In this document: positions 35,264-64,000 of the stretch, piece by piece
How the letters are laid out: every line of letters begins with the position of its first letter
How positions within the stretch are numbered: the stretch's first letter is position 1
Assembly (NCBI GenBank): GCA_016699795.1
Contig: CP065011.1
Coordinates: 155,131-219,130 of the forward strand
Length of the DNA: 64,000 bases
From: Candidatus Moraniibacteriota bacterium
Lineage (GTDB): Bacteria; Patescibacteriota; Minisyncoccia; Moranbacterales; GCA-2747515
Reading direction: 5' to 3'
Translations under genes and position numbers: made by a program
The notes under the pieces: generated by a model
Told to the model about the DNA's origin: nothing
Database searches by the model: none
What the model saw: the letters and a program-made list of their open reading frames with translations, nothing else

Positions 35264-35316
35264 AAGTCTTTTCTCTCTATAAAAACAAAAAACTCCCCTT
35301 TCTTCTATCATTTTTG

Positions 35317-35389
35317 AGCCACCTGTCGGACTCGGACCGACGACCCACGGTTTACAAAACCGTTGCTCTACCAACTGAGCTAAGGTGGC
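35317..35389 (-). tRNA. tRNA-Thr (anticodon UGU)
   Basis: Minus strand: GCCACCT TA GCTC AGTTGGT AGAGC A ACGGT TTTGTAA ACCGT GGGTC GTCGG TCCGAGT CCGAC AGGTGGC T. Confidence 0.8.
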
Positions 35390-54887: not shown

Positions 54888-55279
54888 CGAAACAACGGAT
54901 CAAAACAGGTATATAAGCCGGATTCTGTCGAGGACGACCATTTCTCTAGACGTATCGTTACCGATACGCTCTTCTCCGATTAAGGAGAAAGCGACTCTTC
55001 TCTCAATAAAGAGAGACACGGTCTTGCATTCGGGTAAGGATTTAACCGTTTCACTTCTATAGTTTCCTATAGAACTCATCCTATTCGAAAATAGGATGTT
55101 TTCTTTTTCGCAAAAGAAAACGTCTCTGTTCGCACCTCGCGCTTCACAGCGTGCGGGAGTTACCCGCTACCCAGTTCCTTTAAAAAAATAAAGGGAATGT
55201 CCGGACTTTCCTCTTTCTCTCTTTATAAAATAAAAAGAAAAAGCGATCGTCATACCTGTTCTGATTCGTTGTTACGCTT
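54888..55279 (-). ncRNA. rnpB: RNase P RNA (bacterial type A-like) with extended P1
   Basis: Minus strand contains GAGGAAAGTCCGGAC (P4 5' strand) and ACAGAATCCGGCTTA (P4 3' strand). Long P1 pairs AACAACGAATCAGAACAGGTAT with ATACCTGTTTTGATCCGTTGTT. The region is GC-richer than its flanks. Confidence 0.75.
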
Positions 55280-58231: not shown

Positions 58232-58801
58232 TTATTTCTTTTTATATTCTGATTTTAATTTTGAAAAAACTAATGTATTACGAAAATTGTTAAAATGCTC
58301 ACTAAAAGAATCTTCTCTATATTTACCCTCATATACATAACCACATTTTTTAGCTACTCCGGAAGAAGCTTCATTTTTTTCATCACACCTTATTTGAATT
58401 CTGTTTAATTCCATTTTTTCAAAAACTTCTTTTTCAAGTATCTTTACTGCTTCTGTCATATAACCATTTCTTGTATGAGAAGAAGATAACCAATAGCCAA
58501 TTTCACCGGATTTTTCTTTTTCATTCATATCAAAAATAGAAATGTTTCCTATATGCTCATTATTTACAAAAAGACCATATTCAACTTTTTTTCCTTTTTT
58601 TGTTTCCTCCTCTTTATCAAATAAATATTTCAGACTATCCTCTACTTTCAAAGTTAGTGCGGTCCAAGAGAACCAAGGTTCTAAATGTTTACGATTTTCG
58701 TCTACTACTTTAAATATAGTTTCAGCCATTTCTAAAGTTGGCCTTGTTCTTTTTAAAAGTAATCTATCACCTCTAAGTTGATTTTTGAATTTTATTACCA
58801 T
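58232..58801 (-). CDS. GNAT family N-acetyltransferase (RimJ/RimL-like)
   Basis: 189 aa; motif A-like region YWLSSSHTRNGYMTEAVKIL. Confidence 0.65.
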   Translation of the reverse strand: MVIKFKNQLRGDRLLLKRTRPTLEMAETIFKVVDENRKHLEPWFSWTALTLKVEDSLKYLFDKEEETKKGKKVEYGLFVNNEHIGNISIFDMNEKEKSGEIGYWLSSSHTRNGYMTEAVKILEKEVFEKMELNRIQIRCDEKNEASSGVAKKCGYVYEGKYREDSFSEHFNNFRNTLVFSKLKSEYKKK

Positions 58802-58961
58802 ACTTTTATTGTTATACTCATCAGAATATTTAAAGATTTACATGCAGATCTGGAAAAGTTATTTCATCTAACATCTAGACGTCGTCTGAAATTGCATAAC
58901 AAGTTTAAGTATAACGTAATGAAACCAGACATGCCACATTACTATATTGCATGATGTAAAT

Positions 58962-59396
58962 TTATAAAATATGGTCGGATTGAAACATTGAACGTAAATC
59001 AGATATATTTTTATCAAAATTTTTAGAACTAAATTTTTTATCACGGTTTTTACCCATTAACATAAAAGGACTTCGTTCTTCATTTTTAAATCGAGCGAAT
59101 ATATGGAAATGACAGTGTTTTATTTCTTGACCTGCTTTTTCACCATTGTTTGTAGAAAAATTATAACCGCAACAATTTTCTTTACTTTGTAGTTTCTTAA
59201 ATATTGAATTTTGAATATGTGTAAGGTCTTTTGATTCATTATTGTTAAGCTCAAAGGAATATTGCAAATGCCTAATCGGGATAATAAGAAAATGTCTTGG
59301 AATTATTGGATTACGTGGATACAAAACTCTAAAAAATTTAGTTCTAAAAATTTCTTGTTTTGCAATTACATCTTGTGAACAAAAGTCGCAGACCAT
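58962..59396 (-). CDS. HIT (histidine triad) family protein
   Basis: 144 aa; HCHFHIF (HxHxHxx). Confidence 0.65.
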   Translation of the reverse strand: MVCDFCSQDVIAKQEIFRTKFFRVLYPRNPIIPRHFLIIPIRHLQYSFELNNNESKDLTHIQNSIFKKLQSKENCCGYNFSTNNGEKAGQEIKHCHFHIFARFKNEERSPFMLMGKNRDKKFSSKNFDKNISDLRSMFQSDHIL

Positions 59397-59414
59397 ATTT
59401 TATAAAGTTATTTC

Positions 59415-59572
59415 ATACAACGTCAGGGATATACGAAGTTTTTCTGGAACGAAGTGGAAGAAAAATTTGGGTGAGGGGCGAGCCGAGCCCCGAACCGTAT
59501 ATCCCTTGTTATACGACCCGACGACTGAAAGGAGGAGAGCGCAGCGTGGCTTGAGTTCAAAAAATATTTTTC
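59415..59572. repeat. palindromic element family member b
   Basis: TIRs ATACAACGTCAGGGATATACG / CGTATATCCCTTGTTATACG; internal CGAAGTTTTTCTG..AAAAATTTGGGTGAGGGGCGAGCCGAGCCCC; tail AAAGGAGGAGAGCGCAGCGTGGCTTGAGTTCAAAAAATA shared with element d. Confidence 0.7.
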
Positions 59573-59623
59573 GTTCTCATTCATTATGATAGGCTTTCCT
59601 TATTTATTATAAATTTGATTTTC

Positions 59624-60283
59624 CTATGAATCAAATGCAATTGCTTGTTTGATATAATATCTCAATATTTCATCTTTATAATCCTTAGCTTTACTTAACC
59701 TAAGATTCAGACTTTTGTTGCCTTCTCCTTCAAGTAGCGAATATTTATCTTCAAATTTTTTACCATCGGAAAAAGAAAAAGTGATGCCTCTTTTTGTTGG
59801 GCTAAGTGTTATAACTATTCGTTTATTTCTATAAACAGGAACACCATAATATTTCTCGGTTCCTCCACGCATTTCTTCTTTAAGATCAGAAAATTCTTTT
59901 TTTATGAGCGCCCTGAATTTAACAACAATGGATTGATATTCAGGTAAAACTTTTGATTCAATGAATAATTCAATAGGTGGTTTCATATTATTTCCCTCCT
60001 TATAATCTTTGAACCATTTTTTTGCACTCTCTCTGCGATGAGGACAACCAGGCCAGCAACAAGGTCTTTTCTTTCCCTCCATAATTTCGGCTGATAAGCG
60101 GTCAATATGTCCTTTGCGTGTTTCTGTGGTTTTTACAATAGTAACCCAGCAAATCCACTCATTACGAGCAAGAGGGGTGAGCTTGTTCCACTTAGAAAGC
60201 AAATCTAAATTGGAAACCAGACCTTTTTCCATATCTTCTGGTACTTCATGAACAACTCCTGTGGCAATTTCTATTTTTTTCAT
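59624..60283 (-). CDS. YdeI/OmpD-associated + DUF1801-like protein
   Basis: KRPCCWPGCPHRRE (YdeI CxWxGC-like); C-terminal DUF1801-like region. Start moved to MKKIEIATG to avoid an 80-nt overlap. Confidence 0.5.
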   Translation of the reverse strand: MKKIEIATGVVHEVPEDMEKGLVSNLDLLSKWNKLTPLARNEWICWVTIVKTTETRKGHIDRLSAEIMEGKKRPCCWPGCPHRRESAKKWFKDYKEGNNMKPPIELFIESKVLPEYQSIVVKFRALIKKEFSDLKEEMRGGTEKYYGVPVYRNKRIVITLSPTKRGITFSFSDGKKFEDKYSLLEGEGNKSLNLRLSKAKDYKDEILRYYIKQAIAFDS

Positions 60284-60287
60284 ATTT

Positions 60288-60734
60288 TCAGCGTTCACAG
60301 ATTTCTTTGAAATACTCAAGAGCTTTTGGCCAGGCAGTATCAAACATTTCTTGAAATGCTTCATCAACTTCCATGACTACTTCAAGTGTTGTTTTTTCAT
60401 CTCCTTCATTTTTGAAGAAGTAATCTTCTCTTGAACCAATCCACTTTTTCATCATCTCATCAGTGAGTTCCACCTCTATATTCTGTGGATTGACCATAGC
60501 AATATGCTTGCATTTTATAGAATTGTTTGGATTTAATTCTTCGATCATAACCTTGGTTCCACCTTGGGTTTTGTCAAAGAAAGAGATGTGTCCGCCTTGC
60601 TTCCATTCTCCTTCATACGTCATGCCTTCTCCCCAGGCTTTGGCCCACTCTGGATAAACTGACTTGTCCATGATTTTGTTGAACACAAAATCGCATGGTT
60701 TATTGATTGTTATTGAATAGGTTAGTTTTTTCAT
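60288..60734 (-). CDS. SRPBCC (AHSA1/Bet v1-like) family protein
   Basis: 148 aa; SRPBCC-like size and pattern (INKPCDFVFNKIMDKSVYPEWAKAWGEG). Confidence 0.55.
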   Translation of the reverse strand: MKKLTYSITINKPCDFVFNKIMDKSVYPEWAKAWGEGMTYEGEWKQGGHISFFDKTQGGTKVMIEELNPNNSIKCKHIAMVNPQNIEVELTDEMMKKWIGSREDYFFKNEGDEKTTLEVVMEVDEAFQEMFDTAWPKALEYFKEICER

Positions 60735-60755
60735 ATTATTCTCTACTAAATTTTA

Positions 60756-61148
60756 TTACTCCATCGAGTGAAGACCGAACATGTTTCCTTCAGAGTCCAA
60801 GCAAAGTGAAATAAAACCGTATTCACCGATACTCATTTTAGGTTTGACAATTTTCCCACCAGCAGAGATTACTCTCGATTCTTCTGTTATGCAGTCTTCA
60901 GAGTGAAAGTATATGAGGGTGCTATTGCCACCTGCGTTAAACCCTTCCATTTTTACCAGTGCTCCCGCTGCACCATAAGTTTCCATGTCTCCAGGAAAGC
61001 TCATCATTATTGTGTTTTGGTCAGATGGATCTCCCAGTGGTTCTAGTTTGGTGTCAAACACCGCCTCATAGAACTTTGTGGCTTTGTCCATGTCATCTAC
61101 ATATATTTCAAACCAAGCTGCTTTTCTTATTTTCATATTGTTCTCCAT
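60756..61148 (-). CDS. VOC (glyoxalase/bleomycin-resistance/dioxygenase) family protein
   Basis: 130 aa; FEIYVDDMDKATKFYEAVF and C-terminal FGLHSME, typical of glyoxalase-fold proteins. Confidence 0.6.
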   Translation of the reverse strand: MENNMKIRKAAWFEIYVDDMDKATKFYEAVFDTKLEPLGDPSDQNTIMMSFPGDMETYGAAGALVKMEGFNAGGNSTLIYFHSEDCITEESRVISAGGKIVKPKMSIGEYGFISLCLDSEGNMFGLHSME

Positions 61149-61169
61149 TAAAAAGTAAAGTTATTAAGA

Positions 61170-61300
61170 TTTTATAATCTAATATTTCCACCAGTGTTAC
61201 ACTGGTGGTTTAATTTAAGGGAAATATTAGGGTCTGAGAAAAACGACCGAACCGAAGGTGAGCATGCCACTGGTGTTTCACCAGTGGTGTCGTTTTTCTC
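61170..61300. promoter_or_regulatory. twin palindromic operator-like sites nested in longer inverted repeats, upstream of the VOC gene
   Basis: CCACCAGTG-TTA-CACTGGTGG (61188..61208) inside CTAATATTTCC...GGAAATATTAG; CCACTGGTG-TTT-CACCAGTGG (61267..61287) inside GAGAAAAACGAC...GTCGTTTTTCTC. Confidence 0.55.
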
Positions 61301-61386
61301 TTGACATATTCTCTTTAAAATCAAATTTGTCCATCTTTGAAAGCCTATCATTCCTTATTTTCCGTTAGAAAAATATTTTTTGAATT

Positions 61387-61522
61387 GCGTATAACGTATC
61401 CAAATATCTGAAGTTTGCTGGAGTGAAACGAAAGCAAATTTGGGTCGAAAAAGTTTTGCGCTCCTTAATTTAAAATCTAATAAGGCAAAACTTTTGAGCC
61501 AGATATTTAGTGTTGTACGATG
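61387..61522. repeat. palindromic element family member c
   Basis: CGTATAACGTATCC..ATATCTGAAGTT..GCAAATTTGGGTCGAAAAAGTTTTGCGCTCCTT...AAGGCAAAACTTTTGAGCCAGATATTTAGTGTTGTACG. Confidence 0.7.
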
Positions 61523-61523
61523 T

Positions 61524-62009
61524 TTAGTTTTTAAAAAGCCCCCACTCTGAAGCTTGGTATTTATCTTGCTTTGCTATTATATCAATTTGTTTTTGTATCT
61601 CCAAAATATCCTCCTTATTTAATGGCTCAAATTTATCGTAGAATCCAGATTCACGAGCTGGCAAATACACGGACTCCGGAAAAACCTGATCCTTAGCATC
61701 AAATGTGCGACCGAACACATGCACATGCAAAAAGGGCTTTTCGCCAGTTTTAAACGCCCAGTTGCCCATATCTTGATAATTTATTTTTACAACTTTAATT
61801 CCGCGATTATTCAAGCTCTTTTCCATTGCTTCACCGACAATCATTGTCAATCTCATTAATTCTATGGCAACAGCAGGCACAAGGTGTGTTCGGTCGGGAA
61901 TCGACGCATCTTTAATACGAATACGAATATGCCCTCCATCGGTGCGACTGACGAAAGGTTTTTCATGTGATTCAACGATAAAATTTTCAGTTAGATAAAT
62001 TTTAGCCAT
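61524..62009 (-). CDS. HIT-like (histidine triad) protein
   Basis: 161 aa; FLHVHVFG (HxHxHxx). Confidence 0.55.
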   Translation of the reverse strand: MAKIYLTENFIVESHEKPFVSRTDGGHIRIRIKDASIPDRTHLVPAVAIELMRLTMIVGEAMEKSLNNRGIKVVKINYQDMGNWAFKTGEKPFLHVHVFGRTFDAKDQVFPESVYLPARESGFYDKFEPLNKEDILEIQKQIDIIAKQDKYQASEWGLFKN

Positions 62010-62060
62010 ATTTTTAATAAAAGATATTTTGCCTTTTAGGGCTTTTTAAAAACTAAATTT

Positions 62061-62250
62061 CGTATAACGTATCCGAATAAACGAAGTTTTTCTGAAGCGT
62101 AGCGAAGAAAAATTTGCGAAAAGTCCGAGCTGAGGACTTTTCCGTTTATTCGGTGTTGTCCGAGGGTTCTTTTGCCCCTCATTAATGTAATTATATCAGA
62201 TAAAAGGGCAAAAGAAAGCGCAGCGCCTCCTTGAGTTTCAAAAAATAAAC
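62061..62250. repeat. palindromic element family member d
   Basis: CGTATAACGTATCCGAATAAACGAAGTTTTTCTGAAG...AAAAATTTGCG...CCGTTTATTCGGTGTTGTCCG; hairpin TTTTGCCC...GGGCAAAA; tail AAAGCGCAGCGCCTCCTTGAGTTTCAAAAAATA. Confidence 0.7.
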
Positions 62251-62374
62251 TTTACCTTATTAAAAGAGTCCTTTTGGAATTTTTTTGGTCGTCCTATGGA
62301 CAAGGATTGATAAATATGCTTATATAAAATATATTCAGCTAATAAAGGCTGAAAACTAACCAAAGGAGGGAATT

Positions 62375-62536
62375 ATGTACTTTAATCTGCATGGTGTTCC
62401 GTGGCATATTGACAAAAAAGAAGTAGCAAGTCAGTCAGCCAACACTCCTGTGCCTCGGTCGTATTGGGTGGCCGGAATAATCATCGGCTTAGCTCCTTAT
62501 GTCATCGTTGGGCTGGGAATATTATTTTCACGGTAG
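62375..62536 (+). CDS. small hypothetical membrane protein (53 aa), GC-richer than its surroundings
   Basis: SD AAAGGAGGG 6 nt before the ATG; MYFNLHGVPWHIDKKEVASQSANTPVPRSYWVAGIIIGLAPYVIVGLGILFSR; followed by a hairpin plus T-run at 62541..62593. It is the only plus-strand ORF in this minus-strand block. Confidence 0.35.
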   Translation: MYFNLHGVPWHIDKKEVASQSANTPVPRSYWVAGIIIGLAPYVIVGLGILFSR

Positions 62537-62540
62537 ACGC

Positions 62541-62593
62541 TGCCTCGTGCCAGAAAGTTTTTCGGAACAATTTGGCACGGGGCTCTTTTTTTA
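62541..62593 (+). terminator. hairpin plus T-run terminator
   Basis: CCTCGTGCCA...TGGCACGGGG followed by CTCTTTTTTT. Confidence 0.4.
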
Positions 62594-62650
62594 AAAAAAT
62601 TCCAAAAGGGCTCAAATATAAAAATAAAAAGTTTGTTTTTTTGAAATTTC

Positions 62651-62780
62651 GGACAACGTTTGCGTGTATCAGAAGTTTTTTCGAAATGAAATGAGAAAAA
62701 ATTTGGGTGGAGAAAATTTGCTTTCCATATTATTTTATTTGAGCAAATTTTCGCAACCTGATACACGCTGTTAGGTGATG
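62651..62780. repeat. palindromic element family member e
   Basis: CGGACAACGTTTGCGTGTATCAGAAGTT...AAAAAATTTGGGTGGAGAAAATTTGC...GCAAATTTTCGCAACCTGATACACGCTGTTAGGTG. Confidence 0.7.
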
Positions 62781-62809
62781 TATTTTTTAAAATTTTATAA
62801 ACTCGTCGA

Positions 62810-63058
62810 TTACAGATACCAATAATTAATAATACCCATCGCTGTTATAACGGTAAAAATTATTGTCGTAATCAAGATCCCAATTTGCCCAGCTTGTTTA
62901 TAGGATTTCCATGACGAATACAACCAGAACGGTTGGGCAAGAAGATTGATAATAAGTCCAAACTGCGGATATTTTAACGAAGTCGCTATTTGAGCACCAA
63001 TAGTTAAACCTGGCAGGGCAAATTGGGTTACCGAATTGAATAATTTTTCTTTGTTCAT
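62810..63058 (-). CDS. small hypothetical membrane protein
   Basis: 82 aa; 2 TM. Confidence 0.4.
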   Translation of the reverse strand: MNKEKLFNSVTQFALPGLTIGAQIATSLKYPQFGLIINLLAQPFWLYSSWKSYKQAGQIGILITTIIFTVITAMGIINYWYL

Positions 63059-63092
63059 GGCAATGTTTATAAAATTTTTAAAAATATTTCAT

Positions 63093-63228
63093 CTAACGTT
63101 AAGAATATCTGAAGTTCATTGTAGCATAGCGGAAATGAATTTGGGCCGAAAAAGTTTTGCTTTCCTTTATTCAAGTATCTAATAGGCAAAACTTTTGAGC
63201 CAGATATTCTTTGTTAAGTGATGTAATA
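63093..63228. repeat. palindromic element family member f
   Basis: CTAACGTTAAGAATATCTGAAGTT...GAATTTGGGCCGAAAAAGTTTTGCTTTCCTT...AGGCAAAACTTTTGAGCCAGATATTCTTTGTTAAGTG. Confidence 0.7.
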
Positions 63229-63267
63229 AAAATTTTTCTTCCTTTTTGCATTTTAAACAGGACAATT

Positions 63268-63939
63268 TTATGATTCCAATTTCAGAGGGTTGAAGTTAGT
63301 TTCATAATCGTAATAATCTTCATTTTCAGCTTTCTTCAATTTCTCCACAACTTTGTAAGTAACGGGAGTCATAATAACTTCAACTACAACTTTCAGAAGC
63401 CAGCCAGACAATATCGAAGCCACAAGCAGGTTGGTCGGAATCACAGCATAAAGCGCAATCACATAAAATAAAATTGTGTTCACTCCTTCTCCGACAACAG
63501 TTGAGCCAATAGTCCTAGTCCATAAATATTTTCCTTTCGTCCATATTTTCATTTTTGCCAAAACATAGTCATTTAAAATTCCACCAGCCCAGACCGCGAT
63601 CCAGCCACCAAACAAAATTCGAGGCACTTGTCCCAAAACACGAACATACGCACTGTTTGCATCAAATCCAGCGGCGGGCGGAAGTAAAACCACAATAGAA
63701 TAAATCACACCAGCCAATACAGAGGCAAGCAAAACCATCCACACAACACTTCTTGCTTTGGCATAACCATAAACTTCCGTTAGCACGTCAGCAAAAATGT
63801 AAGTGAAAGGAAAATATAAAACTGTTGCGGATACTGTAAAAATTCCAAGTTGAACAATTTTGCCAGCCGTAATATCAGAAACAAGCTGAAAAGTAATATA
63901 CAATGCTGTAATTAGCCCAAGGTATTTGTATTGCTTCAT
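63268..63939 (-). CDS. yhhQ: queuosine-precursor transporter (YhhQ/DUF165 family)
   Basis: 223 aa; YFPFTYIFADVLTEVYGY motif; 6 TM. Confidence 0.65.
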   Translation of the reverse strand: MKQYKYLGLITALYITFQLVSDITAGKIVQLGIFTVSATVLYFPFTYIFADVLTEVYGYAKARSVVWMVLLASVLAGVIYSIVVLLPPAAGFDANSAYVRVLGQVPRILFGGWIAVWAGGILNDYVLAKMKIWTKGKYLWTRTIGSTVVGEGVNTILFYVIALYAVIPTNLLVASILSGWLLKVVVEVIMTPVTYKVVEKLKKAENEDYYDYETNFNPLKLES

Positions 63940-63985
63940 AAAATTGTCCTGTTTAAAATTCTTAATTAAAAAATTTTTATTATTT

Positions 63986-64000
63986 CACTTAACGTTTCGG
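63986..64000. repeat. start of another palindromic element (truncated by the window end)
   Basis: TATTTCACTTAACGTTTCGG matches the 5' ends of the elements at 30080 and 63093. Confidence 0.4.

Follow-up and report, generated by a model that had tools for sequence, protein, structure and literature searches.

Structured palindromes as putative recombination sites of an integron-like gene-capture platform in the Candidate Phyla Radiation

Bacteria of the Candidate Phyla Radiation (CPR, or Patescibacteria) make up a large part of bacterial diversity and have tiny genomes, and to our knowledge few mobile-element systems have been described for them. Among described tyrosine recombinases, XerS and XerH are encoded next to their own dif sites, and XerCD, which has no I2 domain, acts on the folded single-stranded hairpin attP of CTX phage against a double-stranded chromosomal site. 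In Acinetobacter, pdif modules flanked by recombinase sites build up next to one another. In integrons, the additional domain around patch III (I2 helix) that is specific to the integrase IntI is considered defining and necessary for recombination (PMC9668308; PMC8138268), and the field credits acquisition of the I2 helix with the ability to recombine folded single-stranded DNA (PMC7790495). In the canonical bottom strand of an attC site, extrahelical bases lie on the arm opposite AAC, and each arm has a spacer of 5-6 unpaired nt (PMC5027507). It is common for cassette arrays to have no IntI nearby (PMC9024848). This work concerns a family of palindromic DNA elements, and the tyrosine recombinase associated with them, in a 64,000-nt stretch of the genome of Candidatus Moraniibacteriota bacterium (contig CP065011.1, GCA_016699795.1). 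This stretch is called the window, and its numbering is used for coordinates unless another locus (L-number) is named.

The elements probably serve as recombination sites, in an attC-like role, within a gene-capture platform that resembles integrons and is specific to CPR/Patescibacteria. As in integrons, a tyrosine recombinase gene was oriented divergently to a one-orientation array of compact, mostly single-ORF (open reading frame) cassettes with diverse accessory cargo. A conserved insertion site adjoined the recombinase gene; in the window the recombinase pseudogene was on the + strand, the junction at 31739 and the cassettes on the minus strand. Between the cassettes lay imperfect palindromes that share an invariant AAC…GTT core and were selected for structure and not sequence, the cargo-antisense strand folded better, and the crossover appeared to map to AAC. 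The best family match of the recombinase was an integron-integrase model. Within the window, 58.9-64.0 kb is the distal part of an array whose head lies beyond the window edge, and a second platform, decayed and with its recombinase gene dead, lies at 30.0-32.2 kb. In full-text literature searches, neither integrons nor integron-like platforms were found to have been described for CPR.

Association of the elements with an attI-like junction and a recombinase

A covariance model (R1) was built from eight element copies and run over the window and other loci. The window contained six strong copies scoring 92-107 bits each, one degenerate copy, one decayed copy and one copy cut at the window edge, all on the + strand, confirming a preliminary description that had reported at least seven palindromic copies in one orientation. 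Elements were imperfect palindromes of 78-208 nt (median 117 nt). Elsewhere in the 64 kb, R1 found no dispersed copies, including over 36 kb searched with filters off. The composite motif AACGT-N9-15-GAAGT-N5-30-ATTTGGG had five matches, all on the + strand, compared to none in shuffles. The conserved internal box proposed earlier was present and was significant within this composite motif; taken alone, AAATTTGGGY occurred at chance level (20 matches, 22.8 expected). The ATTTGGG box, a AGGGATAT/ATATCCCT stem and the two subfamilies previously distinguished by their shared 3' tails were all seen in the window elements. The proposed inverted-repeat variant GAATATCTGAAGTT / AACTTCAGATATTC proved to be identical bases on opposite strands and not two arms: the true partner of AATATCTG is CAGATATT, and GAAGTT is the opening of a side hairpin. 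Nor was there a copy between almost every gene pair, as had been stated. The YdeI-like, SRPBCC and VOC genes (59624-61148) lay within one inter-element segment, and the gap between the GNAT and HIT genes held only a decayed remnant (58861-58960, 8.8 bits). What holds of the earlier description is that the palindromes are structured, form a lineage-restricted family and accompany an array of small accessory genes. No Rfam family matched the elements at gathering or E-value thresholds (noise only, E 0.068 or worse), and no close relatives were found in viral contigs.

One kilobase from the element copy at 30.7 kb, and divergent from the minus-strand genes, ORF 31759-32169 (+) matched the N-terminal SAM-like domain of tyrosine recombinases (Pfam PF13495). 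In approximately 40 loci, conserved DNA upstream of this recombinase started right after a cassette-terminal …YAAC. The junction block reads TSGTTWTTATRCGA … TTGTATATTATRCGAA, contains two direct repeats and lies about 118 nt before the recombinase start codon. Left of the junction the sequence differed in every genome, and four contigs started at, or no more than 2 nt from, the junction AAC. The junction point in the window was 31738/31739, where the cassette end …ATATAAC (to 31738) is followed by TCGTTATTATACGAA … TTGTATATTATACGAA with two direct TTATRCGA boxes (31739-31800). Homology of the window junction to more than 30 loci (blastn) started at 31732-31737. With these properties of an attI site, the conserved junction is a putative insertion site. 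The cassette-sense strand of both TTATRCGA boxes (31739-31800, about 40 loci) reads TTCGTATAAT, which includes a perfect -10 hexamer directed toward the array, and the boxes might also act as an outward promoter of the first cassettes.

A recombinase profile search yielded 53 reference-genome loci, almost all from CPR/Patescibacteria and from many classes, with identities of 48-82%; many of these loci lay within 100-260 nt of a contig end. R1 matched 62 times in the recombinase loci, with 62/62 matches on the recombinase strand and 62/62 upstream of the recombinase. Arrays of 7-10 element copies were found in L006, L023 and L038. A search with the junction pattern matched at least 120 metagenome contigs. 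These were picked by the junction motif alone, without reference to the elements, and the first 80 were analyzed as an independent test set. They contained 100 element matches, all 100 on the junction strand and 98 on the cassette side (p ~1e-58), with 191 and 210 kb of sequence searched on the two sides. An element was carried by 53 of the 65 junction contigs having at least 600 nt on the cassette side, and the other 40 junction contigs contained 42 further matches.

The platform was represented in Saccharibacteria, Gracilibacteria, Peregrinibacteria, Microgenomates and Parcubacteria. One metagenome-assembled genome (MAG) had two platform loci (L049, L056), and the window genome had two separate arrays. 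The platform was also seen on contigs labelled Bacteroidetes, Promethearchaeota (Asgard), Atribacterota and Actinomycetota (L002/L043 2152-3700, L050, L006, L035). On the Bacteroidetes-labelled contig the recombinase was truncated by a serine-recombinase fragment adjoining a tRNA gene. The non-CPR-labelled contigs represent either cross-phylum transfer or mis-binned CPR contigs, and may bear on published attC clusters without integrase in archaeal MAGs. Relatives (~67% identical) of the window's alpha/beta-hydrolase (28141-29154) and of the N-terminal part of its YdeI-like protein (59624-60283) sat upstream of the recombinase in a Komeilibacteria locus (L028 6452-8716), where the element model found no sites. 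Sites of a diverged type may be in use in the Komeilibacteria array, and the small array of the window may once have reached ~28 kb.

Structure of the elements, cassettes and recombinase

Every copy shared a common Y-shaped DNA fold. The outer stem (…YAACG/TGTTR…) is followed by a bulge of 2-4 nt on the 5' arm and then by an inner stem of 10-11 bp of variable sequence. A side hairpin is opened by invariant GAAGT…ATTTG or covarying GATGT…ATATG, and a terminal hairpin is closed by GG…CC, forming a three-way junction with GAAGT…ATTTGGG…CC. In an alignment of 64 distinct elements, drawn from over 20 MAGs, 89.7% of the cells paired, compared to 68.5% in shuffles and 32-45% in slid registers, and double-sided changes numbered 478 (162 expected). 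Independently, RNAalifold run on a plain MAFFT alignment identified compensatory changes in 21 of 35 pairs.

Three independent asymmetries indicate that the + strand is the one folded as single-stranded DNA. The + strand folded better in 59/65 elements (Wilcoxon p=4e-10). Two G·T wobbles, AACG·TGTT and GAAGT·ATTTG, were nearly invariant (58/64 and 62/64). Finally, the motif GCGNAGC, approximately 20-fold enriched in the elements and their tails, had 34 occurrences there on the + strand and a single one on the complement, compared to 45:44 outside the arrays. Mini-hairpins of d(GCGNAGC) melt at ~76 °C and their RNA equivalents are far weaker (PMC13037366); the strand bias together with this DNA-specific stability thus points to folded single-stranded DNA and not to RNA or duplex recognition. 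The + strand is recombinase-sense and antisense to the cargo, which is the geometry of the integron bottom strand.

A GC-rich 'CCCGA-type' tail followed 13 of 60 elements. It consists of tandem GCGNAGC-type mini-hairpins (…GAGCGCAGCGTGG…) and often ends GAGTTCAAAAAATATTTTTC. The tail was present at 59523-59572 and 62170-62250 of the window and also in L006, L017, L018, L019 and L021. It forms a separate module between the 3' box and the cassette body and is the 'shared tail' of the preliminary description.

Inter-element segments had a median length of 668 bp, of which the longest ORF filled a median of 82%, and this ORF pointed away from the recombinase in 48 of 54 segments. Forty cargo proteins had a mean identity of 8%. 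Cargo families included GNAT, NUDIX, serine hydrolases, methyltransferases, HEPN, an ADP-ribosyltransferase and many DUFs. Each segment opened with GTTATRYGATGT… and closed with …ATTTCRNMTAAC, and in 17 of 39 segments the two ends were reverse-complementary over 17-37 nt. The median was 4 nt in both controls, mismatched ends (95th percentile 9 nt) and the flanks of a single element (p=4e-8 and 3e-6 for the two controls). Complementary segment ends are expected if the unit was once closed into a circle through the hairpin. An orthologous cargo module shared by two loci (L099/L137, 85% identical) had GTT…AAC as its exact boundaries, and past the right-hand element the two loci carried unrelated cargo. 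A test of whether cargo and element travel together found two informative pairs among 90 segments. Element similarity was 54% within and 53% between arrays (p=0.15).

A protein search with the recombinase remnant of the window gave fragments of at most 201 aa, and the full-length protein was taken from genome loci. The window gene is a pseudogene (31855-32194, +) with an ATG->ATA start, a frameshift near 32135 (after …IEIQSAKK) and a deleted catalytic domain. It was 97% identical to P0001, and its relatives continue into a full catalytic domain. Recombinase length was exactly 270 aa in 24 of 32 complete genes and 256-283 aa in the other eight, with the full catalytic residue set R…K…HxxR…H…Y; interrupted copies were found at 8 of 40 genome loci. 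The best NCBIfam model was TIGR02249 (integron integrase), with 219.3 bits, under its cutoff of 265, and the match was split at profile position 177. The archaeal XerA model NF040815 gave 218.3 bits (cutoff 220), and the recombinase was collinear with XerA (4a8e, 5hxy) over residues 12-265. Aligned with IntI4/VchIntIA (2a3v), it had 19 residues (179-197) where IntI has 62 (183-244), indicating that a roughly 43-residue IntI-specific domain (I2 helix) is absent. A C-terminal SPL tail was common to the recombinase and IntI4. By sequence, the recombinase is related to both IntI and XerA. Between deeply separated CPR lineages its protein identity was 50-82%, and at the nucleotide level identity to the window copy was about 65-81%; these levels appear to fit horizontal spread better than vertical descent. 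In another locus (L003 10001-11643) the recombinase gene was cut to 148 aa and followed by three GIY-YIG endonuclease ORFs on the opposite strand, and may have been invaded by a homing-endonuclease element.

Comparison with integrons and weighing of rival explanations

The proposed platform would have three parts: a compact tyrosine recombinase gene, typically 270 aa; a double-stranded attI-like insertion site with two TTATRCGA boxes ~118 nt upstream of this gene; and an array that runs away from the recombinase and is made up of short cassettes, most of them with a single gene, with one Y-shaped hairpin between neighbors. The + strand of an element, equivalent to the integron 'bottom strand', would fold as single-stranded DNA, and the recombinase would exchange strands within the TAAC of the 5' box. 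Exchange with the attI-like site would result in insertion, and exchange with another element in excision as a circle. The analysis shows directly the architecture, the element-recombinase association, selection on structure, the strand asymmetry, the junction position and the modular cargo; the single-stranded substrate, the exact cleavage point and this recombinase as catalyst are inferred.

Several differences set the platform apart from described integrons. Its hosts are CPR bacteria, and its 270-aa recombinase is without the ~43-residue IntI domain and scores below the TIGR02249 cutoff. The sites have 2-4 nt unpaired on the AAC arm and 0-1 on the other arm, unlike attC sites. A conserved side hairpin, which in the better-folding strand is also located on the AAC arm, and the ATTTGGG junction are further features of these sites. 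Their box consensus is extended (ATTTCRNMTAAC / GTTATRYGATGT): strict RYYYAAC was found in 13/61 sites and strict GTTRRRY in 16/61, while AAC was present in 54/60 and GTT in 59-60/60. Cassette ends pair over 17-37 nt and not just 7 nt. Unlike in sedentary chromosomal integrons (PMC9668308), sites were no more alike within an array than between arrays. The platform would thereby work like an integron but fail two of its defining features, the IntI domain and the canonical attC asymmetry. Whether a minimal IntI/XerA-like recombinase without I2, never acquired or lost, recombines Y-shaped sites that mirror the attC asymmetry, CPR-wide and horizontally shared, is an even call.

Several points weigh against an integron-like role of the elements. 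The support is computational, and neither an excised circle nor a polymorphic array was observed directly. The recombinase has no I2/additional domain, which is held necessary for single-stranded attC recombination (PMC9668308; PMC7790495), and the bulge asymmetry is opposite to the canonical bottom-strand rule (PMC5027507). The only recombinase copy that the window contains is dead, and the main array was followed only to a point short of its head. The alignment of the 64 elements (A3) was fitted to the structure of the model, so that pairing is somewhat inflated. Flanking element cores of the L099/L137 module were both 51% identical, with a background median of 53%, and therefore give no signal of co-inheritance of a cassette with its own site; this is a single informative pair, with which crossovers on either arm would be compatible.

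The main rival is that a host housekeeping Xer-type enzyme acts at a dif-like junction, beside which cassettes hitch-hike and pile up in the manner of integrative mobile elements exploiting Xer (IMEX). The adjacency of XerS and XerH genes to their own dif sites and the integration of CTX phage as a folded single strand via XerCD are precedents for it, and the CPR recombinase has a Xer-type architecture without the IntI insertion, aligning end to end with XerA and falling just short of the NF040815 cutoff. Smyshlyaev et al. moreover described a 'Cand' subgroup of Xer-related recombinases in candidate phyla that are presumed Xer stand-ins (PMC8138268). A housekeeping resolvase of chromosome dimers would nevertheless not be expected to be dead in the window and interrupted at 8 of 40 genome loci. 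Here the recombinase appears dispensable and mobile, with identity levels across deep CPR lineages that suggest horizontal spread. Two arrays in the window genome and two loci in one MAG also argue against it, as do a junction of two direct repeats where dif-type sites have a 28-bp inverted pair, sites that are ~117-nt three-way junctions as opposed to 28-bp dif sites, and arrays that reach 10 or more single-gene cassettes in one orientation. This explanation is unlikely. Less likely still is that the elements are ordinary attC sites, forming clusters of attC sites lacking integron-integrases (CALIN), that are served by a canonical IntI elsewhere, with the 270-aa recombinase incidental. The AAC/GTT core, imperfect palindromes, one-orientation cassettes and one-strand folding bias are all integron-like, and arrays without a nearby IntI are, as noted, common (PMC9024848). 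Yet across more than 130 loci the link between element, junction and 270-aa recombinase was almost without exception, none of the loci showed an IntI-type enzyme, and the sites rarely carried strict attC motifs, had a spacer of 2-4 nt on one arm and mirrored the attC asymmetry.

If the elements were a structured RNA, acting as a cis-regulatory leader or encoding a small RNA ahead of every gene, this would account for a conserved three-way-junction fold with covariation and for the position of each element upstream of a gene on the gene strand. However, the better-folding strand with the G·T wobbles is antisense to the genes, no Rfam family matched, the genes downstream have unrelated functions, the stability of the GCGNAGC motifs is specific to DNA, and the recombinase association would go unexplained; an RNA role is highly improbable. 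The preliminary description had favored a dispersed family of repetitive extragenic palindromes (REP) or miniature inverted-repeat transposable elements (MITE), selfish or domesticated, possibly acting as terminators or promoters. Like REP, bacterial interspersed mosaic elements (BIME) and MITE, the elements are short, repeated, intergenic palindromes of MITE-like size, and two hairpins in the region scored terminator-like. REP sequences are 20-40 nt, genome-wide and in both orientations, while the CPR elements have a median of 117 nt, are confined to arrays on one strand (62/62 and 100/100 matches) and lie nearly all on one side of the recombinase and its attI-like junction, with no dispersed copies in the window. 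A check for target-site duplications found none, and the supposed terminal repeats flanking the elements were the mutually complementary ends of adjacent gene segments. In consensus scans neither terminator-like (7, compared to 4.6±2.0 in shuffles) nor promoter-like sequences (30, compared to 21.8±4.7) exceeded the shuffles, which lends no support to the terminator/promoter idea, and no HUH/RAYT transposase was found among ~30 window ORFs scanned. A REP/MITE origin can be practically discounted. Local tandem gene duplication, the other alternative raised earlier, was excluded because the genes between copies are unrelated. Riboswitch or leader RNAs (unrelated cargo, wrong strand), hammerhead or other ribozymes (no Rfam match) and a CRISPR-like array (its spacers would be genes) were also dropped.

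If the integron-like reading is true, a cassette platform across CPR classes would be a major route of accessory-gene flux and would explain the breaks in CPR assemblies at these loci. The platform would also provide a natural case in which to examine how the handling of folded single-stranded DNA arose among tyrosine recombinases. A system that operates without I2 would be a counter-example to the I2 helix as the enabling innovation (PMC7790495), and would represent either an ancestral integron state or an independent invention. Pipelines and surveys that define IntI by the additional domain (PMC9668308) would miss this recombinase and at best report orphan attC clusters, and integron-like systems may therefore be under-counted. 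A compact 270-aa enzyme with structure-defined sites could also be a possible recombination tool.

Features of the two arrays in the window

The main array was represented by five complete elements, all on the + strand. Element 'a' (59410-59522; R1 98.1 bits) has a 5' box (…ACAAC) ending at 59421 and a 3' box with GTT starting at 59508; its DNA fold was -17.8 kcal/mol on the + strand and -15.3 on the minus strand. In element 'c' (61384-61526; 106.9 bits) AAC ends at 61395 and GTT starts at 61512. Element 'd' (62057-62169; AAC to 62068, GTT from 62155) scored 99.4 bits on the + strand and 22.5 on the minus strand, and the loop of its side hairpin contains GCGTAGC. Element 'e' (62646-62784; AAC to 62657, GTT from 62770) scored 99.2 bits. 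Element 'f' (63086-63227; AAC to 63097, GTT from 63213) scored 106.1 bits and had a relative with 85% blastn identity over 157 nt on the Bacteroidetes-labelled contig (L002 1335-1490). Only the start of element 'i' (63982-64000, +) is included before the window end, and the array runs on beyond it. Logan contig L001 overlaps the window end and contains the complete element 'i' (64.1 bits), a 101-aa minus-strand gene and the start of the next element. Two short Logan contigs extend past the window end, and both break inside the array. At the distal array end, the decayed copy at 58861-58960 (+; R1 8.8 bits, weak) keeps ATTTCATCTAAC, GAAACCAGACATGCC and …GCATGATGTAAAT.

In the main array, Pfam supports the Vut_1, HIT-like, YdeI/DUF1801, SRPBCC-like, VOC and HIT annotations. 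The segment at 63213-63993 (-) encodes a Vut_1/YhhQ-family transporter, and its ends are 25-nt reverse complements. An 82-aa membrane-like protein is encoded at 62770-63097 (-), with ends complementary over 33 nt, and a HIT-like protein at 61512-62068 (-), with ends complementary over 30 nt. The long three-gene segment at 59508-61395 (-) contains YdeI/DUF1801, SRPBCC-like and VOC/glyoxalase genes. The HIT family hydrolase gene at 58962-59396 (-) is the last recognizable cassette gene, although an older cassette may be represented by the GNAT gene at 58232-58801. The cassette-like segment at 62155-62657 has a GC-rich mini-hairpin tail and only a 53-aa ORF, on the + strand (62375-62536).

In the small decayed array, element 'h' (30666-30768, +; R1 91.8 bits), whose GTT starts at 30754, was 90-95% identical to copies in L046 and L033. 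The degenerate element 'g' (30075-30241, +; 23.3 bits, E=0.0035) has an intact 5' half, an expanded interior and no 3' arm. The first, attI-proximal cassette (30754-31738, -) encodes a class I SAM methyltransferase (Pfam).

Two small + strand ORFs lie in cassette-like segments. ORF 62375-62536, opposite to the cassette genes, has a hydrophobic C-terminus, is preceded by a promoter-like TTGATA-17-TATATT (62307-62335) and is surrounded by 47-nt inverted repeats. ORF 30347-30541 encodes 64 aa, Cys-rich and acidic, with TTGACA and TATGAT-like hexamers upstream as read from the sequence. Neither had a Pfam match; by analogy with chromosomal integrons, both might be addiction/toxin-like modules.

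The leader of the VOC gene contains a double palindrome (61170-61310) of two near-identical hairpins (CCACCAGTGTTACACTGGTGG, CCACTGGTGTTTCACCAGTGG) nested in longer stems. It had no R1 or Rfam match, and both hairpins were terminator-like on the + strand. An Rfam gathering scan identified RNase P RNA (bacterial class A) and a four-tRNA cluster at 54898-55262 and 34472-35389, housekeeping features that confirm the chromosomal context of the window.

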